Source: Candidatus Lloydbacteria bacterium RIFCSPHIGHO2_02_FULL_50_18 (GTDB lineage Bacteria; Patescibacteriota; Minisyncoccia; Phycocordibacterales; UBA6899). From it: 42,604 bases of DNA. Of the stretch, positions 5,321-33,509 are shown in pieces. The position numbers were made by a program, and so were the translations under genes. Where the stretch lies: NCBI GenBank assembly GCA_001821395.1, contig MHLM01000016.1, positions 1-42,604 on the forward strand, written 5' to 3'. Within the stretch, counting starts at the first letter, position 1. Every line of letters begins with the position of its first letter. A model generated the notes under the pieces. The model ran no database searches. It was not told the DNA's origin and was given only the letters and a program-made list of their open reading frames with translations.

Positions 5321-5384
5321 CGCATTCCCCTCACTAAAAATTCTGAGCACATCCTACCATGTGCTAACAAATTGTGAAGTAAGT

Positions 5385-5607
5385 AAAAGATATTAAACCC
5401 CAGGGCAAGCCCTAGACTCGCAATGAGCTCGCAAGGCCTCACGCGAGTCCGCGGCAGAGCCGTGGGGTATTGAACTTTTTTAGCTCTCCTCGGCACCACG
5501 GTGAGTACTTCCATTTTTCTAAAGCAGAATACTGCTAAGAAAAATTGGTCGCTCGGAGATGAAAAAGAAGACCTTTTCCATTTCGCTCGCTCTACGTCGG
5601 CAATAAA
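5385..5607 (+). repeat. Repeat element A, copy 1. It is a structured unit of about 150 bp, here carrying a nested 59-bp insertion of element B at 5494-5552.
   Basis: Near-identical to the copies at 10292-10457 and 28201-28365. Hairpins ccagggcaagccctgg, gactcgc...gcgagtc and ccgcggcagagccgcgg; flanking direct repeat ggtattaaacc; hairpin gaaatgaaaaag...tttttcatttc. Confidence 0.85.
5494..5552 (+). mobile_element. Element B copy 1, a roughly 59-bp hairpin-bearing miniature element nested inside element A at ctcctcgg^ttcgga.
   Basis: caccacggtgagtacttccatttttctaa...ctaagaaaaattggtcgc matches the B copies at 20885-20942 and 23017-23074. Element A copies 2 and 3 lack it. Confidence 0.75.
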
Positions 5608-10169: not shown

Positions 10170-10291
10170 GTTATTGCTCCTTGAAAAGAACGCACCTACC
10201 TTCTTTTATGCTACGCGACCCTCTGCGACTGAATAGATTGACATATTTCCGATCTATTTTTTAATACACAAGCGATGACTACTTTTTTGAT

Positions 10292-10457
10292 AAAAGGTAT
10301 TAAACCCCAGGGCAAGCCCTGGACTCGCAATGAGCTCGCAAAGCCTCGCGCGAGTCCGCGGCAGAGCCGCTGGGTATTAAACCTTTTTTAGCTCTCCTCG
10401 GTTCGGAAATGAAAAAGAAGAATTTTTCATTTCGCTCACTCTACGTCGGCAATAAAG
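10292..10457 (+). repeat. Repeat element A, copy 2, intact. It lies between the two secreted paralogs.
   Basis: Near-identical to 5385-5607 (minus the B insert) and to 28201-28365. Confidence 0.85.
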
Positions 10458-10483: not shown

Positions 10484-11338
10484 TTATTTTTTTTCCTCAT
10501 TGAGAATACTGAGGTCCGGAAGCCGTTCGGGTCTGCACGCGTCCACAATGCCGTCTGGTGAGGCAAACTTGCGGAGCGTATGGTCATACACATGGGAACT
10601 TTTCCACTCAAAACATCCAAGCGCACCGGGGATGATCGACCCGTCACTCGTGTTCGGAATATCCCTTGTGCGATACAGGCACGTGCGGTATTTGAGGGAG
10701 TGATTAATAGCCACATCCGTAGCACCGCCTCGTGATACATATGCCGGAGTTGTGGGACTATTGAACATAAAGAGTCGCGGTGTAGCGGGGACAGCATCTC
10801 CATAATATGACCCATGCGACCTTGGGAACTGTTCAGGGGCTTTATTCCACTCCATGAAGTAGTGCCTCGTTGCACGCTTTGGATCGCTACCAAACAGCGG
10901 ATCAAGTAGAGGGGAGTCCACGACCCAATCAGGGTGAAGAAACAGCTGGTGCTTCCCGAAATGCTGATGCAGCACATTATGCTGAATGACCATGGTGCCG
11001 TCCTTATTCTTCTCCGAAGAATAGACGCAGCCTCGCACGTACTGCACGAACGCAAAATCTTCAAGGTGTGCGTGATCTGTCGTTTCATACCAGGCATACA
11101 CGGATGTGTTCGCTATCTCGAAATCATTGCGATTCGCCGCAGGGAGTTGCCAGTTCTTCACACGAAAACCAAATTCCTTGAGTGCTGCCGGAAGGGTGGG
11201 GTCTTCACTGCACGAAACTTTCGGCGGACATGCACTGGCGCGGAATGTTTTCTGGTCTCCACTCGAACCTTGACCCGCCAAACATGCGGACGCAAGTATC
11301 GCGGCGAAAAAGACGGTGGAAATGGTCTTATGCATCAT
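10484..11338 (-). CDS. Secreted protein or lipoprotein of unknown function (284 aa), paralog 2.
   Basis: Signal peptide MMHKTISTVFFAAILASAC. The conserved blocks shared with paralog 1 are listed at 9252..10169. Terminator cccccacagtgggggg lies after the stop. Confidence 0.8.
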   Translation of the reverse strand: MMHKTISTVFFAAILASACLAGQGSSGDQKTFRASACPPKVSCSEDPTLPAALKEFGFRVKNWQLPAANRNDFEIANTSVYAWYETTDHAHLEDFAFVQYVRGCVYSSEKNKDGTMVIQHNVLHQHFGKHQLFLHPDWVVDSPLLDPLFGSDPKRATRHYFMEWNKAPEQFPRSHGSYYGDAVPATPRLFMFNSPTTPAYVSRGGATDVAINHSLKYRTCLYRTRDIPNTSDGSIIPGALGCFEWKSSHVYDHTLRKFASPDGIVDACRPERLPDLSILNEEKK

Positions 11339-11640: not shown

Positions 11641-12315
11641 TCAATCGACGGCTTTCTCGACCTGTTCTTTCTCATAGTCCAGCCATTCTTCAACAAATTT
11701 GGCGAAGTCTCCTGTGTTTTCAAAATAATCAGGAAACTCGCTCGGTGAAAGTATCGCCGACTCTTCCCTTTTGCCAACGGCATAATCCTCGTAGCTCGAA
11801 TATCGATACCCCTCGAGATACTTCTTCGCCGCAGACAGATTCTTGATTCCTCCCTCCTTCCACTCGGGCTCGATCAGTTTCACGGGGTTCAAGTGAATAT
11901 ACGCATATAGGTATTTCAAATACTCGTCACTGTCGACATGCTCCGCCTTAAATCTACCTTGAAATAGCGGACCAACCCTCTTATTCTTTAAATTGAAATA
12001 CTTCGAGTAGCTCGTAGTGAGTTTTTCCATGAACGTACTAACTCCCCCTTCAGATATCTCCTTAACAAGTAGGTGAAAATGATTATTCATAAGTACATAC
12101 GCACCAATCGCAACAATTTTGTCATCTACCTCTATTTTATCCAAAGGCAGCCTTTGGATAAGTTTATAAACTACTGGCCGAGTGCTATTTGAGATGTGTA
12201 ACATCCGGTGGAAACGTACTCGATCACTCCTATCCATGAAGATATCTCTTTTCTCAACTCCGCGATTGTAAACGTGGTAGTACTCCCCTTCTGCAAAAGT
12301 AATCTTTCTATTCAT
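11641..12315 (-). CDS. HUH Y1 transposase, IS200-like / REP-associated tyrosine transposase (RAYT-1), 224 aa.
   Basis: YHVYNRG...YVLMNNHFHLLV (HUH motif)...GPLFQGRF.AEHV...YLKYLYAYIHLNPVK (catalytic Tyr region). A paralog is at 32268..32930. The cognate palindrome ccaaaggctgcctttgg lies upstream at 12331-12347 and 12397-12413, and inside the CDS at 12141-12157. Confidence 0.85.
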   Translation of the reverse strand: MNRKITFAEGEYYHVYNRGVEKRDIFMDRSDRVRFHRMLHISNSTRPVVYKLIQRLPLDKIEVDDKIVAIGAYVLMNNHFHLLVKEISEGGVSTFMEKLTTSYSKYFNLKNKRVGPLFQGRFKAEHVDSDEYLKYLYAYIHLNPVKLIEPEWKEGGIKNLSAAKKYLEGYRYSSYEDYAVGKREESAILSPSEFPDYFENTGDFAKFVEEWLDYEKEQVEKAVD

Positions 12316-12330
12316 TCAACTAATTTTACT

Positions 12331-12413
12331 CCAAAGGCTGCCTTTGGACAATTGGTCGGGGTGTTAATTCAATCACGTCTGCTCCAATCAACATATCCAA
12401 AGGCTGCCTTTGG
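12331..12413. repeat. Two REP-1 palindromes (ccaaaggctgcctttgg) at 12331-12347 and 12397-12413, upstream of RAYT-1.
   Basis: Perfect 7-bp stem palindrome. The two copies are 66 bp apart. Confidence 0.8.
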
Positions 12414-12486
12414 ATGGGGTGGGGGGGTATTCAGGATATAACAAAATCCCCTCTTTCGAGAGGAGTTTTGTTTTCCAAAAAATTAC

Positions 12487-12530
12487 GGCAAACACAAAAG
12501 CCCCTTTCGGGGCTTTTGTGTTTGCCAAGG
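12487..12530 (-). terminator. Strong terminator for the surface-protein gene. Perfect 18-bp stem ggcaaacacaaaagcccc / ggggcttttgtgtttgcc with a tttc loop.
   Basis: Hairpin followed by a T-run in the minus sense, about 50 nt after the stop at 12579. Confidence 0.7.
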
Positions 12531-12578
12531 TAGGTCCTTGGGAGTTTAGAACTCCAACTGAGTTCAGACTGGGACGAA

Positions 12579-15947: not shown

Positions 15948-16503
15948 ATAAGTCTGCTTGTTAATGTGCTGTAAATAATACAGCTACGAACCTACTAATA
16001 ACTTTCTTATAATCACGGTAATACGTATGCGATCGATATTCCGCCCTACTCGCCGAATCCCGCAAGAGAGGCAACGGGCAAAGCAAGAAATATTTTTCAC
16101 ATACGACGGGCACGACCAACTGCTATCGTATGTACCCTTCTATTCGGAATGCCTTGTGCACTCCTCCTTCGAGTCTACATGCGACGCATGAATTCGTACC
16201 GAACTAGAAATCGTTCATCGAGAACGAATAACAAGATCCGTTACTTCCCTCCGCAACTCCGAACATAACATTGAGAGTCACTTCGGAAATCACACATCCG
16301 CTATTTTGTTTTCAATGAGCTATCCATTTCGGCTTTCCTCCATACGTGTCCACTTCATGCACCCCGGAGCGTCCGGACATAAAGCGAGCGCATCGCATTG
16401 CATTCTGTACAAACATACAAAGACAGAATCGCTCTGCTCTCGAAAGCACAATATAATTATAGTATTTCTCCCCTCTTCGCGCCAAAAAAATGGTGCAAAT
16501 ATT

Positions 16504-16512
16504 GTGGATAAC
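16504..16512. promoter_or_regulatory. Perfect DnaA-box 9-mer TGTGGATAA (TTATCCACA).
   Basis: Exact consensus 9-mer in the 1.1-kb non-coding region. A second one is at 18219-18227. Confidence 0.3.
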
Positions 16513-16689
16513 ATTTTAAACAGCCACGTGCTGTTTTTTGCCCCACAAACGTTGAGAATACCTGCGTGCACCATCCCTGGTACACGCAGGGGCATAGTAC
16601 ACGCCCCCACCCATGCCAGTCAAACGATTATACGGCCTGTTTGTGATGTATTTAAGACATGGAAATAGAGCTATTGGACATTGGACACC

Positions 16690-17000
16690 AGCAGACAGCC
16701 AACTTCTCTAGGGTCGAACCTCCCAAAGCTGAGGAACGACCTTGGGCTGTCAAAGACACTGGTAAAGGTGTCTTTGAAAGTTGTCTTTGAGGCGGTTGTT
16801 TTAGGGGTGTAGGAAGGTGTGCACAACGTCGATGGGAATAGGCGGATGCTTAAAAGTTGGGGAGAGATGGGAGACAGACAACTTCTCTGAGGTTGGACCC
16901 TAAAAAATGAACGGCTTCATCAAGGTTGAACCTTTCAAAGCCAGACAACTTCTCCAAGGTCACACCTTCCAGAGCTAAGGAATGACCTTAGTCTGATATT
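16690..17000. repeat. Cluster of REP-like hairpins in a 1.1-kb intergenic region. Units at 16708-16746 and 16936-16973 match the consensus, and half-units lie between them, each preceded by acaacttctc.
   Basis: Consensus ccaagg-NNNN-acc-tYYcaaagcYRagg-N-NNNN-accttRg. Other units: 17462-17499, 17559-17596, 18426-18463, 20992-21029, 33433-33470, and a split unit at 22997-23016 plus 23075-23091. Confidence 0.8.
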
Positions 17001-17076: not shown

Positions 17077-18045
17077 TTATCCAATCAATGAGTATGTTGA
17101 CCACCTACGTTCGCCCCTTTTGACCAACGTGCCTTCTATCACCATGGAGAGAAGTTCACGCTGAATGGTTTTTTCTGAAATGCCGGGGATGCTCTTTGCG
17201 ATATCGCCGACCGTGATGGCGGGCTTCTGCTTGATGAGCGCGAGGATGATCTTGCGTCGGTCATCACGGGTCACATCAGGGCGAGAGCGGGCGATGACAT
17301 CGCGGTCGGAGATGACCAGGCGAGGCTGCATGTAGGAGCGGGCGGGTTGCGGAGTTGGGGTATTGGGTGCTCTTGGTGAGACTAAGGGGGGTTGTTGCAT
17401 CATCAAGGAATCACCTTTGCGCTGCGTTGTCGCTGGTGTGAATTGCTGAATCGTTGTGGGTGCTGCAACCAAGGAGACACCTCTCAAAGCCGAGGAGTCA
17501 CCTTGGTTTTGCTGCGGGGTTGGAGTGAACGTGCGCACGAGAGGAATAGCGGGAGTATCCAAGGAGACACCTTCCAAAGCTAAGGAGTCACCTTGGGTAT
17601 CTTTCGGTACCTCAAAAAAGCGTTCACTCAGCATCGTCTTGCTTCGCTCTTGCATGCGATTCCATTCCATCTCGACGCCATCCTTCAGTGCACAATATTC
17701 TTTCCGCAACATCGAGGCGTTCATCTCGCTCACCAAGTGTGTTGATGTTGCGACATCAAGAAACGAGATCAGCTTCTCGATCTTCTTTAGGACGACACGG
17801 AGCATGCTCATCTTCTCGCTCGACGAGATCGTCGCTGCGACCGTGATGTCGGAAAGCACTTCGACTCCGACCTCCCTTGTTTTCCACTTCATCGGCTCAC
17901 GATCGGACAGAATGTCCGTAACGAGGTAAAGCGCCGTTGTGAGCTTCTCCGCTTTGCGCACAATATACCCATAGCCGTGAAAGGCTTTGGGTGTTTGCCC
18001 TTCGTGGGTGTTCTTATTTTGCTGACTGTCCTTTTGATGTTCCAT
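17077..18045 (-). CDS. Hypothetical protein of 322 aa with a C-terminal winged-HTH domain. The central low-complexity linker contains two in-frame REP-like hairpins.
   Basis: C-terminus DIAKSIPGISEKTIQRELLSMVIEGTLVKRGERRWSTYSL is wHTH-like. The REP units at 17462-17499 and 17559-17596 encode the duplicated peptide QGDS.AL.GVSL. The gene is divergent from ftsK. Confidence 0.55.
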   Translation of the reverse strand: MEHQKDSQQNKNTHEGQTPKAFHGYGYIVRKAEKLTTALYLVTDILSDREPMKWKTREVGVEVLSDITVAATISSSEKMSMLRVVLKKIEKLISFLDVATSTHLVSEMNASMLRKEYCALKDGVEMEWNRMQERSKTMLSERFFEVPKDTQGDSLALEGVSLDTPAIPLVRTFTPTPQQNQGDSSALRGVSLVAAPTTIQQFTPATTQRKGDSLMMQQPPLVSPRAPNTPTPQPARSYMQPRLVISDRDVIARSRPDVTRDDRRKIILALIKQKPAITVGDIAKSIPGISEKTIQRELLSMVIEGTLVKRGERRWSTYSLIG

Positions 18046-18236
18046 ATAGTGTCTTTAAATTGTCCTTATATGATGTCACACAATTTATTAAAAGTCAAAT
18101 GCTGTCTATTAACCTGTCCTTGAATGCGTCTGGAGCAATAATTTATGTCCATCATACTCACCGACGGCAGAATGTCCAATAGTGTCCGATTGAGGGCGGA
18201 ATGGGGCAAAAAAACACCTGTGGATAACCTACGCTC

Positions 18237-18328
18237 GGGATTGCTTATTGAGGGCACGCATAAAAGTCTGCTGACTTTTTGCTCAGACTCCCGCCGCCGC
18301 GGTCCGTAGCCCCTCAATAAGCAATCCC
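18237..18328. promoter_or_regulatory. Long hairpin: perfect 18-bp inverted repeat gggattgcttattgaggg / ccctcaataagcaatccc around a 56-nt loop that contains a smaller hairpin. It lies in the divergent promoter region upstream of ftsK, next to a DnaA box at 18219-18227.
   Basis: Inverted repeat read directly from the sequence. Confidence 0.45.
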
Positions 18329-18505
18329 TCGCTCCGCAGAAAGTATTTGGAGTTTCATGAGAATCATTTAATGCCGTGGCACCAAAACCGGAGGAATTGC
18401 GGCAAATATAAAATGGACAACTTCTCCAAGGTCGGGTCTATCAAAGCCTAGGCCCGACCTTAGTCCATTTTTTTGTGATAAAATCAGAGCAAATTAAATA
18501 CCGCT

Positions 18506-20827: not shown

Positions 20828-20884
20828 CGCTCAAATAATACCCTTACGGGGCACGCCTTCAATTTTTCCAGCGAAAAATTGTTG

Positions 20885-20942
20885 CACCACAGAGAGTACT
20901 TCATTTTTCTAAGGCGGGGTACCGTTAAGAAAAATTGGTCGC
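20885..20942 (+). mobile_element. Element B copy 2, directly followed by element C.
   Basis: caccacagagagtacttcatttttctaaggcggggtaccgttaagaaaaattggtcgc. Confidence 0.7.
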
Positions 20943-20956
20943 AGGGGAACGACCTT

Positions 20957-21068
20957 ATACCATCGCTCGTTAACCATTTCTGAATAAGTTTCCAAGGAGA
21001 GACCTTTCAAAGCCAAGGACTCACCTTTGAAACTTACAGAAACGGAAAAGATTAATTGGAGATGGTAT
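20957..21068 (+). mobile_element. Element C copy 1, a roughly 112-bp MITE-like unit with about 11-bp terminal inverted repeats (ataccatcgctc...gagatggtat) that carries an internal REP-like hairpin.
   Basis: About 98% identical to the copy at 33398-33509. The TIRs are reverse-complementary. Confidence 0.8.
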
Positions 21069-22972: not shown

Positions 22973-23016
22973 CGGGAAGGCGGCGAACAACTTCTTCAAG
23001 GTCTTACCTTTCAATG

Positions 23017-23074
23017 CACCACAGGGAGTACTTCATTTTTCTAAGACGGAGTACCGTTAAGAAAAATTGGTCGC
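23017..23074 (+). mobile_element. Element B copy 3, inserted into the loop of a REP-like hairpin (5' half 22997-23016, 3' half 23075-23091).
   Basis: The flanks cttcaaggtcttacctttcaatg and cagggagagaccttag pair as REP stem halves (aaggtct / agacctt). Confidence 0.7.
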
Positions 23075-23114
23075 CAGGGAGAGACCTTAGTCCGCCAAAA
23101 AAGAAAAAGAAAAT

Positions 23115-27389: not shown

Positions 27390-28202
27390 ATGTTAAAAGG
27401 ACACGAATCAAGACTCTCAGACAAGCAGCGATACCTTCAGGTGGCGCTTAATGGTACGCGTGCAGATGCACGGGCGATCCTCTCCGTCTTACCATCTTCC
27501 GAACGCATCATCATTGAAGCGGGTACACCCCTCATCAAACGTTATGGTATCGGCATCATCAGGGAGATCTACGACTGGGCTCCGCGGGGGACATTCGGAG
27601 CAGCGGCAGACCGCCGCGCACTAGACGCAAAAATAGCACAATTTGGTCTGATCGGTGCTGTGACACGATCATTTACAGAAGCACAGCGAACACTCCGGGT
27701 GGCGGGAGTGGAGCAGGCTTCAAATAGGCCGTACATTGTTGCCGATATGAAAACGATCGACCGCGGTGAAACAGAGGTGGCGATGTGCGCCTCGGCTGGT
27801 GCAAGTGCAGTGATCGCGATGGGTTCTGCTCCCATCGAAACGCTGAATACCTTCATCGCGTCCTGCGAGAAATACGGCCTCGATGCAATGATTGATATGA
27901 TGAATGTTGAATTCCCACTTGCCGTACTGCGCTCACTCAAAAAACCTCCGCGAGTCATCGTGCTCCACCGCGGTGTCGACGAAGAGCGTGACAACGGACA
28001 AAAAATGCTTCCGCTCCACGAGATCCGTCGCCTCAAGGGGCAATACGACGTCCTCATTGCCGTCGCGGGAGGCGACACAGCGCGGGAGGTACAGAGTGCG
28101 GCATTCAACGATGCGGACATCGTCGTGATATGGAAATCGGTATATGAACAAAACGGCGAGACGCTCGAGCTCATTGAGGGATTTCTCAAAACGATCAAAT
28201 AA
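27390..28202 (+). CDS. OMP-decarboxylase-fold protein of the 3-hexulose-6-phosphate synthase (HxlA) / KGPDC-like family.
   Basis: LQVALN...IEAGTPLIKRYG...IVADMKTIDRGETEVAMCASAGASAVIAMG...VIVLHRGVDEE...AVAGGDT aligns to HPS blocks (LQVAID, ELGTPLIK, FADMKTMD, AGGV). The usual Asp in LQVAID is Asn here. Confidence 0.6.
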   Translation: MLKGHESRLSDKQRYLQVALNGTRADARAILSVLPSSERIIIEAGTPLIKRYGIGIIREIYDWAPRGTFGAAADRRALDAKIAQFGLIGAVTRSFTEAQRTLRVAGVEQASNRPYIVADMKTIDRGETEVAMCASAGASAVIAMGSAPIETLNTFIASCEKYGLDAMIDMMNVEFPLAVLRSLKKPPRVIVLHRGVDEERDNGQKMLPLHEIRRLKGQYDVLIAVAGGDTAREVQSAAFNDADIVVIWKSVYEQNGETLELIEGFLKTIK

Positions 28203-28365
28203 AAGGTATTAAACCCCAGGGCAAGCCCTGGACTCGCGATGAGCCCGCAAAGCCTCGCACGAGTCCGCGGCAGAGCCGCGGGGTATTAAACCTTTTTTAG
28301 CTCTCCTTGGCTCGGAAATGAAAAAGAAGACTTTTTCATTTCACTCGCTCTACGTCGGCAATAAT
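28201..28365 (+). repeat. Repeat element A, copy 3. It sits between the HPS-like stop codon and a strong 12-bp-stem terminator at 28372-28401.
   Basis: Near-identical to the other two A copies. The terminator gaacagcgtatc-atgctc-gatacgctgttc plus a T-run follows. Confidence 0.85.
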
Positions 28366-32267: not shown

Positions 32268-32930
32268 TCACTCCAAGGTGGAACCTTGGAAATTAAGCCA
32301 GTCGCTGATATATTCGTCAAATTGTTCTGCATGCTCAAAGTATTCGGGAAAATCTTTCACCGAAAGAATGGGTGACTCGATCCGTTGTCTACCCTGCCAG
32401 TCTTGCATACTCGAATAAACATACGCGCTCAAATACTTTTTTGCAGCTGCAGGATCCTTGATTCCCTCTTTTCTCCACGTTGGATCGATGAGTTTGACCG
32501 GATTAAGATGAATGTATGCAAAAAGATACTTCAGGTATTCATCTCGCGACACATACTCCGCCTTGAATGTTCCCTGGAAGAGCGGCCCGACACGTTGGTA
32601 TTTTTTATTAAAGTACATTGTGTATCCCGTCGTCAATTTCCTCATAAACTCAGTGATGCCTGTATCATTTGTTGCACGGACAAGCAGATGGAAATGATTA
32701 GGCATCAATACATATGCACCCATGGCACACTGTGCGTTGCCGCGACCCTTGGGATCAAGCACGTCCCCAGCAAGCAGCTTGTAGACGGTCGGACTATCAC
32801 CATTCGCGTAAAACAACATCCGCTGAAAGCGCACATGATCAGGGTCATCCATGAATACCTGCCGCTTCTCCACTCCACGATTGTAGACATGGTAATACTC
32901 GCCCTCAGAAAAAGTGATATGCCGATTCAT
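32268..32930 (-). CDS. HUH Y1 transposase, IS200-like/RAYT (RAYT-2), 220 aa. Paralog of 11641..12315.
   Basis: YHVYNRGVEKR...YVLMPNHFHLLV...GPLFQGTFKAEYV...YLKYLFAYIHLNPVK. Its last codons lie inside one copy of the palindrome ctccaaggtggaaccttgg (32271-32289). An identical copy lies upstream at 32954-32974. Confidence 0.85.
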   Translation of the reverse strand: MNRHITFSEGEYYHVYNRGVEKRQVFMDDPDHVRFQRMLFYANGDSPTVYKLLAGDVLDPKGRGNAQCAMGAYVLMPNHFHLLVRATNDTGITEFMRKLTTGYTMYFNKKYQRVGPLFQGTFKAEYVSRDEYLKYLFAYIHLNPVKLIDPTWRKEGIKDPAAAKKYLSAYVYSSMQDWQGRQRIESPILSVKDFPEYFEHAEQFDEYISDWLNFQGSTLE

Positions 32931-32953: not shown

Positions 32954-32974
32954 CTCCAAGGTGGAACCTTGGAG
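32954..32974. repeat. REP-2 palindrome ctccaaggtggaaccttggag, about 25 bp upstream of the RAYT-2 ATG. A second copy at 32271-32289 overlaps the RAYT-2 stop.
   Basis: 8-bp stem with a 5-nt loop, two identical copies in the same orientation flanking the gene. Confidence 0.8.
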
Positions 32975-33397: not shown

Positions 33398-33509
33398 ATA
33401 CCATCTCTCGTTAACCATTTCCGAATAAGTTTCCAAGGAGAGACCTTTCAAAGCCAAGGACTCACCTTTGAAACTTACAGAAACGGAAAAGATTAATTGG
33501 AGATGGTAT
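33398..33509 (+). mobile_element. Element C copy 2, about 98% identical to 20957-21068.
   Basis: ataccatctctcgttaaccatttccgaataagtttccaaggagagacctttcaaagccaaggactcacctttgaaacttacagaaacggaaaagattaattggagatggtat. Confidence 0.8.

Follow-up and report, generated by a model that had tools for sequence, protein, structure and literature searches.

How do DNA hairpins come to lie in frame inside a protein-coding gene, and do the peptides that they add have a role? The question is posed by the gene at 17077..18045 (- strand) of contig MHLM01000016.1 from Candidatus Lloydbacteria bacterium RIFCSPHIGHO2_02_FULL_50_18, a member of the Candidate Phyla Radiation (CPR, or Patescibacteria); the whole stretch analysed, 42,604 nucleotides (nt), is called the window below. 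The initial annotation of the window had noted two hairpins resembling repetitive extragenic palindromic (REP) elements in frame within this gene, and had named two possible origins, either mobile hairpins that entered a tolerant linker with the frame kept, or two open reading frames (ORFs) that became fused. Most likely, the hairpins are copies of a REP-like palindromic repeat that is spreading in CPR genomes and is tolerated in frame in the linker.

The gene and the parts of its product are as follows:

17077..18045, - strand: host gene, 322 residues (ORF list, homologs, AlphaFold2)
residues 25-143: N-terminal domain, a four-helix bundle like Avd and the 23S rRNA intervening sequence (IVS) protein (AlphaFold2 and Foldseek)
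residues 145-258: linker, not modelled as ordered (AlphaFold2)
residues 260-320: C-terminal domain, an ArsR/CadC-like winged helix-turn-helix (wHTH) (AlphaFold2 and Foldseek)

This is one real, intact gene. A search returned 1,657 homologs of its product, the named ones being Parcubacteria, and an identical 322-residue protein (P0001) is present in the protein collection. In all of the 55 aligned homologs the N-terminal domain, the linker and the wHTH are found within one chain, with linkers of varying length. When 15 or 55 homologs are aligned, the N-terminal part (residues 1-146) is conserved and the C-terminal domain strongly so, the linker between them varies in both length and sequence, and the 15 closest homologs all have M1, E2, K5 and D6. 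Because this two-domain layout is conserved in the aligned homologs, the idea of two fused ORFs is rejected. The AlphaFold2 model, built on the 55-sequence alignment, consists of four helices at residues 25-143, with a predicted local distance difference test score (pLDDT) of 94-98, a linker with a pLDDT of ~50 and no secondary structure, and a wHTH at residues 260-320 with a pLDDT >90. Foldseek matches the N-terminal domain to the four-helix bundles 2gsc and 2rld of the “23S rRNA intervening sequence protein” family and to Avd (4dwl/8ub7) of diversity-generating retroelements (DGRs), and the C-terminal domain to ArsR/CadC-type repressors such as CadC (1u2w), while Pfam gives weak HTH matches only. 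The initial annotation had already described an N-terminal domain and a C-terminal wHTH in this ORF.

Three stretches of the linker region derive from the element, all of them in its + orientation and therefore antisense to the gene:

17559..17596, +: HP1, CCAAGGAGACACCTTCCAAAGCTAAGGAGTCACCTTGG; 61.6 bits in the covariance model described below
17469..17506, +: HP2, CCAAGGAGACACCTCTCAAAGCCGAGGAGTCACCTTGG; 60.2 bits, also identified by its fold and by the L001 and L004 alignments
17403..17419, +: HP3, a degenerate half-copy; weak covariance-model match of 12.5 bits, identified by alignments

Read on the - strand, HP1 gives TQGDSLALEGVSLD (residues 150-163), with the core QGDSLALEGVSL at residues 151-162, and HP2 gives NQGDSSALRGVSLV (residues 180-193), with the core QGDSSALRGVSL at residues 181-192, so that the two lie 90 nt, or 30 codons, apart. 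HP3 reads as ..QRKGDSLMM.., that is (R)KGDSL(MM). Both hairpins had thus been recognized correctly as a duplicated peptide within the ORF, HP1 at its exact position and HP2 with an offset of seven nucleotides (17462-17499 instead of 17469-17506). The two core peptides fall in the part of the linker that AlphaFold2 does not model as ordered. HP1 folds with -15.3 kcal/mol on the + strand and -17.8 kcal/mol on the mRNA strand; the energies of the two coding copies fall between -15 and -21 kcal/mol (z of about -3.5 to -4.5 against shuffles), and the exact 38-mer is expected 0.00 times in shuffled sequence.

HP1 and HP2 belong to a family of repeats. The copies in the window were found by repeat finding and a regular-expression scan, and then with a covariance model made from 34 aligned copies. 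The element is 38 nt long and forms 15 pairs, arranged as a 6-bp foot (CCAAGG/CCTTGG), a variable and covarying 3-bp middle stem, a 4-bp inner stem and an 8-nt loop, with two A·A mismatches and a conserved tip, ACCTTYCAAAGCYAAGG; minimum free energies across copies are between -10 and -22 kcal/mol. Seven full copies are present in the window, starting at 16708, 16954, 17469, 17559, 18426, 20992 and 33433, all in one orientation and five of them intergenic, and the covariance model recovers exactly these seven with 53-62 bits (E 1e-15 to 1e-18). The orientation of the hairpin is well defined, since the reverse strand scores <=27 bits. That the family exists and that its stems covary is shown by the 34-copy alignment, in which pairs 8-31, 9-30 and 10-29 each occur as 3-4 Watson-Crick types (9-30 as A-U, U-A, G-C and C-G) and 86% of the cells are paired, vs 74% in shuffles; the observed covariation score is reached by none of 500 shuffles, and the signal collapses in slid registers.

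Outside the window, the pattern YYARGGNNNNNYCTNNCARAGCNNAGGNNNNNCCTTNG, which leaves the middle stem free, was searched in the one-genome-per-species contigs of GTDB and in metagenome contigs, the latter without taxon labels. The GTDB scan gave 38 matches in 35 stretches, the named ones belonging to Ca. Lloydbacteria, Parcubacteria/Patescibacteria, Minisyncoccia and metagenome-assembled genomes (MAGs) labelled Saccharibacteria, and the metagenome scan gave 86 matches in 83 further stretches. Nearly all matches of the two scans fall in MAGs that are either CPR or unnamed. Public contigs hold ~120 copies, 104 of them unique, of which a minority lies in verified genes. Rfam has no match to the hairpins, either at the gathering threshold or at E<=1. 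Two types can be distinguished. Type A is intergenic and has a conserved 5' tail, (C)AACTTCT, which forms a one-sided bulge; an outer stem of variable but complementary sequence surrounds the whole element, and in many cases a T-run or a terminator of its own comes next. Type B, with the middle stem AGACA/AGTCA or AGAGA/ACTCA, includes most coding copies and also forms the core of a 112-nt composite palindrome. Within a locus the copies all lie on one strand, as in the window (7/7) and in L004, L013, L038, L042, L043, L064 and L073.

The history of the copies in the linker was read from two syntenic orthologs, L001 (a Ca. Lloydbacteria MAG, 75% amino acid identity) and L004 (73%). Neither contains HP1, in whose place both have a clean gap of 42 nt, which corresponds to the 38-nt hairpin plus ATAC, or 14 codons, and a direct repeat of 4-5 nt, GTAT(C), borders HP1 at 17555-17559 and 17597-17601. 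Removal of the 42 nt leaves ...FFEVPKDTPAIPLV... in the window, colinear with ...FFEVPHDAPALEEPIV... in L001, and a protein that reads VPKDTPAIP, vs VPHDAPALE in L001. As judged from these alignments, HP1 is a young insertion that preserved the frame, because it is absent from both orthologs at a clean gap and 42 nt make up 14 codons. HP2 is older than HP1, full or truncated copies being present in that part of the linker in related lineages: L001 and L004 each have one full copy and truncated half-copies in the linker region, and the flank of HP3, CGCAGCGCAAAGGTGATTCCTTG, matches the start of the full copy of L001 exactly. The rest of the linker consists of older remnants of the same family.

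Among the 120 best homologs, seven contain the hairpin peptide, in the same frame each time, and 113 are without it. All homologs with the full peptide and readable DNA (L001, L004 and L043) have the hairpin in their DNA, and P0016 (L044), with a truncated peptide, has a partial one. The insertion is polymorphic, some relatives having the hairpin and others not. At the level of protein alignment, the strain variant P0002 is 99% identical over the aligned part, exactly 30 residues shorter and with a single copy, which fits recombination between the two linker copies, but its junction looks mosaic (PQQT..., ...VTPPTT); another homolog, P0015, has two copies. Taken together with the seven window copies and a linker that AlphaFold2 does not model as ordered, the ortholog comparison favours the first of the two origins named at the outset, entry of dispersed hairpins into a tolerant linker with the frame kept.

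The same element is found in frame in other CPR genes, and hosts were counted only where the hairpin lies in frame within a gene confirmed by Pfam. Besides the wHTH regulator, at least seven further families are hosts, eight having been found in all:

L009: MurD-type Mur ligase, NQGLSLALEGESLV
L010: RsmE
L018: GatB, SKETPSKAKESPLK
L020: UvrA, TKETPSKAKESPLL
L039: RsmI-type methylase
L075/L124: SufC-type ABC ATPase, LQGLTFQSQGETLG
L081: TsaD

Inserts in these genes, as in the wHTH gene, comprise 38-51 nt and add 14-17 residues. The UvrA insert corresponds to a clean gap of 17 residues against solved UvrA structures. GatB contains the hairpin on seven additional metagenome contigs, and the insert sits in a variable loop between RVEANISV and GTKVEVKN; in a survey of 120 GatB homologs, ~110 of which could be parsed, this loop has six residues (SKDGQL) in 55 of the ~110 and the 15-residue hairpin version in 10. 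Sister lineages with 79-91% protein identity have other inserts at the same loop, and those of L131 and L132 are palindromic in DNA (-27 and -32 kcal/mol), the stem of the L131 insert resembling that of the L040/L041 copies. The loop is either an insertion hot spot or the site of an old insert that was repeatedly overwritten. Three different DNA palindromes are thereby seen at one surface loop of GatB (L018; L131, 3001-4401; L132, 3001-4395), and the relative P0160 (SKESPLKL) looks like a deletion remnant. Across the 104 unique copies, the share that is free of stops is 99% in frame f1, 62% in r1, 56% in f2, 45% in f3, 44% in r2 and 8% in r3; the coding copies use f3, r2 and f2, and unrelated genes contain the element in either orientation. 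The inserts have three peptide signatures, KExPSKAKESP, QGxSLALxGxSL and LQGLTFQSQG. Long ORFs that run across hairpins in L026/L077, L053, L048, L122, L129 and L012 look like non-coding read-through and were not counted as hosts.

The remaining copies in the window are partly nested within one another or within other repeats:

16708..16745, +: type-A intergenic copy downstream of the host gene, 5' tail AACTTCT; 53.5 bits
16921..16991, +: nested pair, half-copy 16921-16943 with full type-A copy 16954-16991; repeats D2/D4/D10; 59.8 bits
16872-16899: further 5' half-copy beside the nested pair
18426..18463, +: type-A intergenic copy between the host gene and ftsK; 54.5 bits
20957..21068, +: 112-nt composite palindrome with the type-B hairpin 20992-21029 at its centre; repeat D5; 61.1 bits
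22995..23090, +: split type-A copy whose loop is interrupted by the 75-nt D7 repeat; repeats D4 and D7
33398..33509, +: second copy of the 112-nt composite, hairpin 33433-33470; repeat D5, 98% identity; 61.1 bits

In the nested pair, the full type-A copy appears to have entered the loop of the half-copy at 16921-16943, and together with the split copy at 22995-23090 this suggests that hairpin loops are themselves targets of insertion, which would explain the local clusters. The copy at 18426..18463, which is absent from L001, has an outer stem GGAC/GTCC followed by a T-run (-22.4 kcal/mol, z -6.8) and looks like a terminator. The 112-nt composite looks like a miniature inverted-repeat transposable element (MITE), with long inverted ends (ATACCATC.../...GATGGTAT; ATACCATCTCTCGTTAA.../...TTAATTGGAGATGGTAT); it is also found in other Parcubacteria (L013, L025/L057), and its second copy in the window lies ~0.5 kb from the second of the transposase genes described below.

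Two other repeats occur in the window. D7 is a 75-nt unit present at 20883-20957 and 23015-23089, with 91% identity between copies, and it contains GCACCACRGRGAGTAYTTC and the 3' half of the hairpin; the motif is found at 5490, 20881, 23013, 39308 and 41770. A 166-nt repeat has three copies (5383-5548, 10290-10455 and 28199-28364), two of them 95% identical, with an internal palindrome GAAATGAAAAAGAAGA.TTTTTCATTTC and adjacent conserved tails, in a region rich in small repeats.

A candidate enzyme for the spread of the element is encoded in the window by two genes that resemble REP-associated tyrosine transposases (RAYTs) and are accompanied by palindromes of their own:

11641..12315, -: RAYT-like Y1 (HUH) transposase gene 1, 224 residues; Pfam PF01797, HFH motif
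32268..32930, -: RAYT-like Y1 transposase gene 2, 220 residues; found by tblastn, 58% identical to gene 1
12328-12349 and 12394-12415, upstream of gene 1, and 12138-12159, inside its ORF: palindromes TCCAAAGGCWGCCTTTGGA
12525-12541: short palindrome CCAAGGTAGGTCCTTGG near gene 1
32273-32289 and 32956-32972: ACTCCAAGGTGGAACCTTGGAGT on both sides of gene 2

Gene 1 exceeds the cut-off of 23 for Pfam PF01797 (Y1_Tnp) with 30.9 bits, and the Y1 domain of gene 2 is assigned by its 58% tblastn identity to gene 1. At this identity the paralogs are two diverged genes and not identical copies of an insertion sequence. The best NCBIfam model is NF047646 REP_Tyr_transpos (“REP-associated tyrosine transposase”), with 41-47 bits (43.8 for gene 1). 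ACTCCAAGGTGGAACCTTGGAGT has the same foot, CCAAGG/CCTTGG, as the 38-nt hairpin, and sites of the form CCAAGG-N3-9-CCTTGG occur three times vs 0.03 expected; short forms of 17 nt (CCAAGGTGGAACCTTGG) and 19 nt (CCAAAGGCWGCCTTTGG) exist beside the 38-nt form. The palindromes that flank the RAYT-like genes read CCAAGG-TGGAA-CCTTGG and CCAAAGG-CWG-CCTTTGG, and only the foot (CT)CCAAGG/CCTTGG is common to them and the 38-nt hairpin. In L046 and L047 the gene order is ftsK, wHTH, a long spacer, a PG_binding gene (~1,100 residues), Y1_Tnp and rplJ, and gene 1, kept vertically at a fixed locus, holds the matching position after the PG_binding gene in the window as in both of these loci, where lineage-specific perfect palindromes lie on both sides of the Y1_Tnp gene; in L097, where the synteny is kept as well, the Y1_Tnp gene ends in tandem CAAAGGTCAGACCTTTG. 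The term “REP-like”, used in the initial annotation for the hairpins, gains support from these two genes. The palindrome at 12138-12159, TATCCAAAGGCAGCCTTTGGAT, is perfect over its 22 nt and is another in-frame palindrome, within the ORF of gene 1 itself.

A mechanism that joins these observations would run as follows. The family would multiply in Parcubacteria related to Ca. Lloydbacteria and in other CPR genomes, new copies arising by insertion and old ones being duplicated, truncated or deleted through recombination between copies. Most copies are intergenic, frequently located at the 3' end of a gene or inserted into the loop of an earlier one, and a minority lies in coding DNA, where a copy could survive only if its length keeps the frame, its reading frame is free of stops and its 14-17 extra residues fall in a disordered linker or a surface loop. 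As the linker of the wHTH protein offers all three, the hairpins would simply be translated as QGDSLALEGVSL-type peptides, which are probably neutral passengers and would have no function of their own. The RAYT-like Y1 transposases would act on the single-stranded hairpin and so spread the copies; because the palindromes beside their genes are shorter and share only the foot, we infer this connection between the enzymes and the 38-nt family.

Several observations weigh against this account of a REP-like repeat spread by RAYT-like enzymes. The NF047646 scores lie under the curated equivalog cut-off of 80, a sequence search of the PDB with the RAYT-like protein matched no solved structure, and in readable DNA the 38-nt form is never found directly beside a RAYT-like gene, only shorter palindromes with the same foot being there. 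Flanks of ~50 copies contain neither a GTAG nor a CGTC tag; (C)AACTTCT precedes the element at its 5' end and TCC/GCC follows it at the 3' end. A direct target duplication is clear at one copy only, HP1, and coding copies elsewhere have complementary, not direct, flanks. To our knowledge, Y1 transposases normally make no such target duplications, and what looks like a 4-nt duplication at HP1 may rather have arisen by chance or reflect a motif at the cleavage site. In comparison with the strand that holds most genes, 38 copies are opposite and 25 the same, which is not significant, so that insertion coupled to replication is unsupported; a replication-strand bias was likewise dropped as an explanation, GC skew being without a switch. 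Translation through the hairpins, finally, is deduced from the reading frame.

Three other explanations were weighed against the spread of a REP-like repeat. That the ORF is not one gene, but a pseudogene or a pair of genes that a misassembly at the repeats or the loss of a stop codon has joined, might be suspected because repeats are a classic source of misassembly and the middle of the ORF has no recognizable domain; it is nevertheless extremely improbable, given the 1,657 homologs, the single two-domain chain with varied linkers in every aligned one, the identical protein P0001 and the in-frame hairpin copies in orthologs from independent assemblies. One tandem duplication of a 90-nt linker stretch, that is, an ordinary low-complexity peptide repeat in place of two insertions, agrees with the spacing of exactly 90 nt or 30 codons, with the difference of exactly 30 residues in P0002 and with the resemblance between the sequences that precede HP2 and HP3 (TTCAC.CCA.C..CGCAGC.AA.GG). 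Tandem Repeats Finder, however, detects no array, the HP1 and HP2 units are unlike outside the hairpin, and HP1 has its own duplication of 4-5 nt and gives back the ortholog sequence once its 42 nt are removed; with a hairpin family that extends genome-wide, a duplication could account at most for HP2 and HP3, and as an explanation of the whole it is very unlikely.

The remaining possibility is that the hairpins are tied to the gene by function and kept by selection, either as binding sites (a cruciform or an RNA hairpin) for the Avd-like/wHTH protein or as a cis-regulatory RNA. Avd-like bundles bind nucleic acid in DGRs, and the N-terminal domain has the Avd fold match; of the seven full copies in the window, five are no farther than 1.8 kb from the host gene, all three GTDB loci with double hits (L013, L038 and L042) flank a homolog of it, L043 has one linker copy and two just downstream (three in 1.5 kb), L004 has one in the linker and one downstream, and the element is antisense to the gene in every case. 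This pattern is not reproduced in the 83 metagenome stretches, however, among which L122 alone contains the gene, at a distance of 5 kb from the hairpin; 113 of the 120 homologs are without a linker copy, in L001 no copy lies outside the linker, in L045-L047 no copy scores above 19 bits, and the same element occurs in unrelated genes in either orientation. A better candidate for an operator is provided by the GGACA / AAAGACAC repeats up- and downstream of the gene, which are present in all lineages, hairpin-free ones included. The clustering would be explained by nesting into older copies, which together with two adjacent tolerant regions, the linker and the long spacer, gives a simpler account of it, and selection for a function in this gene is accordingly considered improbable. 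A stronger form of the idea joins the hairpin family and the Avd-like/wHTH gene as functional partners; by recognizing the hairpin, the protein would act, for instance, as a host or accessory factor of the REP/RAYT system, or else as a regulator that responds to DNA in hairpin or cruciform shape. Such a pair would explain why copies gather at this gene in several lineages and always antisense, but it is unlikely, and the same low probability is given to it jointly with a wider version, according to which CPR palindromes would be a regular source of lineage-specific variation in the surface loops of essential proteins, the example being the GatB loop with its three different palindromes in sister lineages.

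Several further features surround the host gene. The motifs GGACA and AAAGACAC form direct and inverted repeats in the conserved wHTH promoter region (18046-18190; ...TAAGGACAATTTAAAGACACTAT-ATG) and a palindrome just past the wHTH stop codon (16750-16790), and they are present in every lineage, for example in L045 at 11009-11043, L047 at 11004-11082 and L046 at 11146-11199; the repeats likely serve the wHTH protein as an operator for autoregulation. In the spacer downstream of the wHTH gene, a block of ~570 nt (16088-16653, - strand) is 70-76% identical to L006, L001, L013, L045 and L047, loci in which the neighbouring protein is only 44-62% identical. Promoter-like sites, TTGACT-N17-TACTAT and TACTATAAT, are present in the block. 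Indels whose lengths are not divisible by three speak against a coding sequence; none of those loci has a gene called there, Rfam has no match, and the block may represent either an RNA gene not yet described or a long leader that belongs to the PG_binding gene. At 18232-18335, in the interval from the wHTH gene to ftsK, there is a conserved long hairpin with arms GGGATTGCTTATTGAGGG (18237-18254) and CCCTCAATAAGCAATCCC (18311-18328), which shows several compensatory changes in L006 (GGTATTGCTTTTAAAGTG / CACTTTAAAAGCAATACC) and has no Rfam match; in L001 an 86-residue gene is called in the matching region. The only two perfect DnaA-box 9-mers of the window (TTATCCACA; 16503-16511 and 18219-18227, both on the - strand) flank the wHTH gene, each just upstream of a promoter-like site, and are conserved in orthologous loci. 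An origin of replication (oriC) was considered and rejected, since there are two perfect boxes only and the near-matches (12 vs 7.75 expected) are neither clustered nor enriched. At the edge of the window lies one RNA gene, and ARAGORN finds no tRNA in the window:

1-1559, -: 5' half of a 23S rRNA gene that runs off the window start; Rfam 1151 bits

The usual description of CPR genomes, which are tiny and have a high coding density, is that they are streamlined, yet the window shows that palindromic repeats multiply in them, alongside genes for candidate RAYT-like enzymes. As such genomes leave little space between genes, copies persist within genes and add their 14-17 residues to linkers and loops of housekeeping proteins, GatB and UvrA among them. 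Such inserts can confuse the alignment of orthologs, the annotation of domains and the assembly of CPR MAGs, and they could also serve as strain-level markers, in the form of 42-nt and 90-nt alleles. The window also offers a testable REP/RAYT system in an uncultured phylum.

In-frame palindromes within genes are known from other bacteria, and the statement of the initial annotation that in-frame REP insertion is rarely documented was too strong. The classic case is that of the Rickettsia palindromic elements (RPEs) (Ogata et al., 2000, as summarised in PMC10969869), and intragenic REPs, including one in uvrA, have been described in several phyla by Di Nocera et al. (2013, PMC3733652), who argue that such copies are accommodated in linkers and loops. 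Like the RPEs, the CPR element is a palindrome found both between genes and in frame in many unrelated and often essential genes of small, reduced genomes, and the extra peptide is apparently tolerated. Unlike the RPEs, which measure ~100-150 bp, it measures 38-51 nt (14-17 residues), belongs to a different phylum and uses at least three frames and both orientations; the likeness, drawn without direct sequence comparison to RPE families, is one of behaviour and not of membership.

With the REP/REPIN and RAYT systems (PMC3733652), the CPR element shares imperfect palindromes of 20-40 nt that are numerous, lie mainly outside genes and are frequent at the 3' ends of genes, compensatory variants of the stem, and occasional copies inside ORFs, uvrA included. 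The Y1 genes of both are single-copy genes flanked by related palindromes, with more than one pair of transposase and palindrome per genome, and the RAYT-like genes of the window with their flanking palindromes match the layout of the REPtron of RAYTs (PMC3733652). The CPR element differs from REPs in that it lacks the terminal GTAG/CGTC tag (PMC3733652) and that many copies instead have the (C)AACTTCT 5' tail as a one-sided bulge in a variable outer stem, and no head-to-head REPIN doublets of the 38-nt form were seen. It also differs from RAYT systems in that the palindromes directly beside the genes are other than the 38-nt form and in that the proteins fall under the curated RAYT threshold. 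Bacterial MITEs such as ERIC, Correia and BOX (PMC10969869) are likewise small, non-autonomous repeats that have hairpin potential and can be fused in frame with host ORFs, and the short direct duplication at the ends of HP1 recalls them, but the CPR element is much shorter and has such a duplication at one copy only. No parent insertion sequence with matching ends was identified for the 38-nt element, and in the literature collection that was searched, no report was found that links REP, RAYT or palindromic elements with CPR/Patescibacteria. Elements of the REP/RPE kind, and palindromes in frame within genes, are thus already known; what is new is the lineage, the small size of the element and its own sequence signature, without the GTAG/CGTC tag, in a case that parallels Rickettsia as another lineage of reduced genomes.

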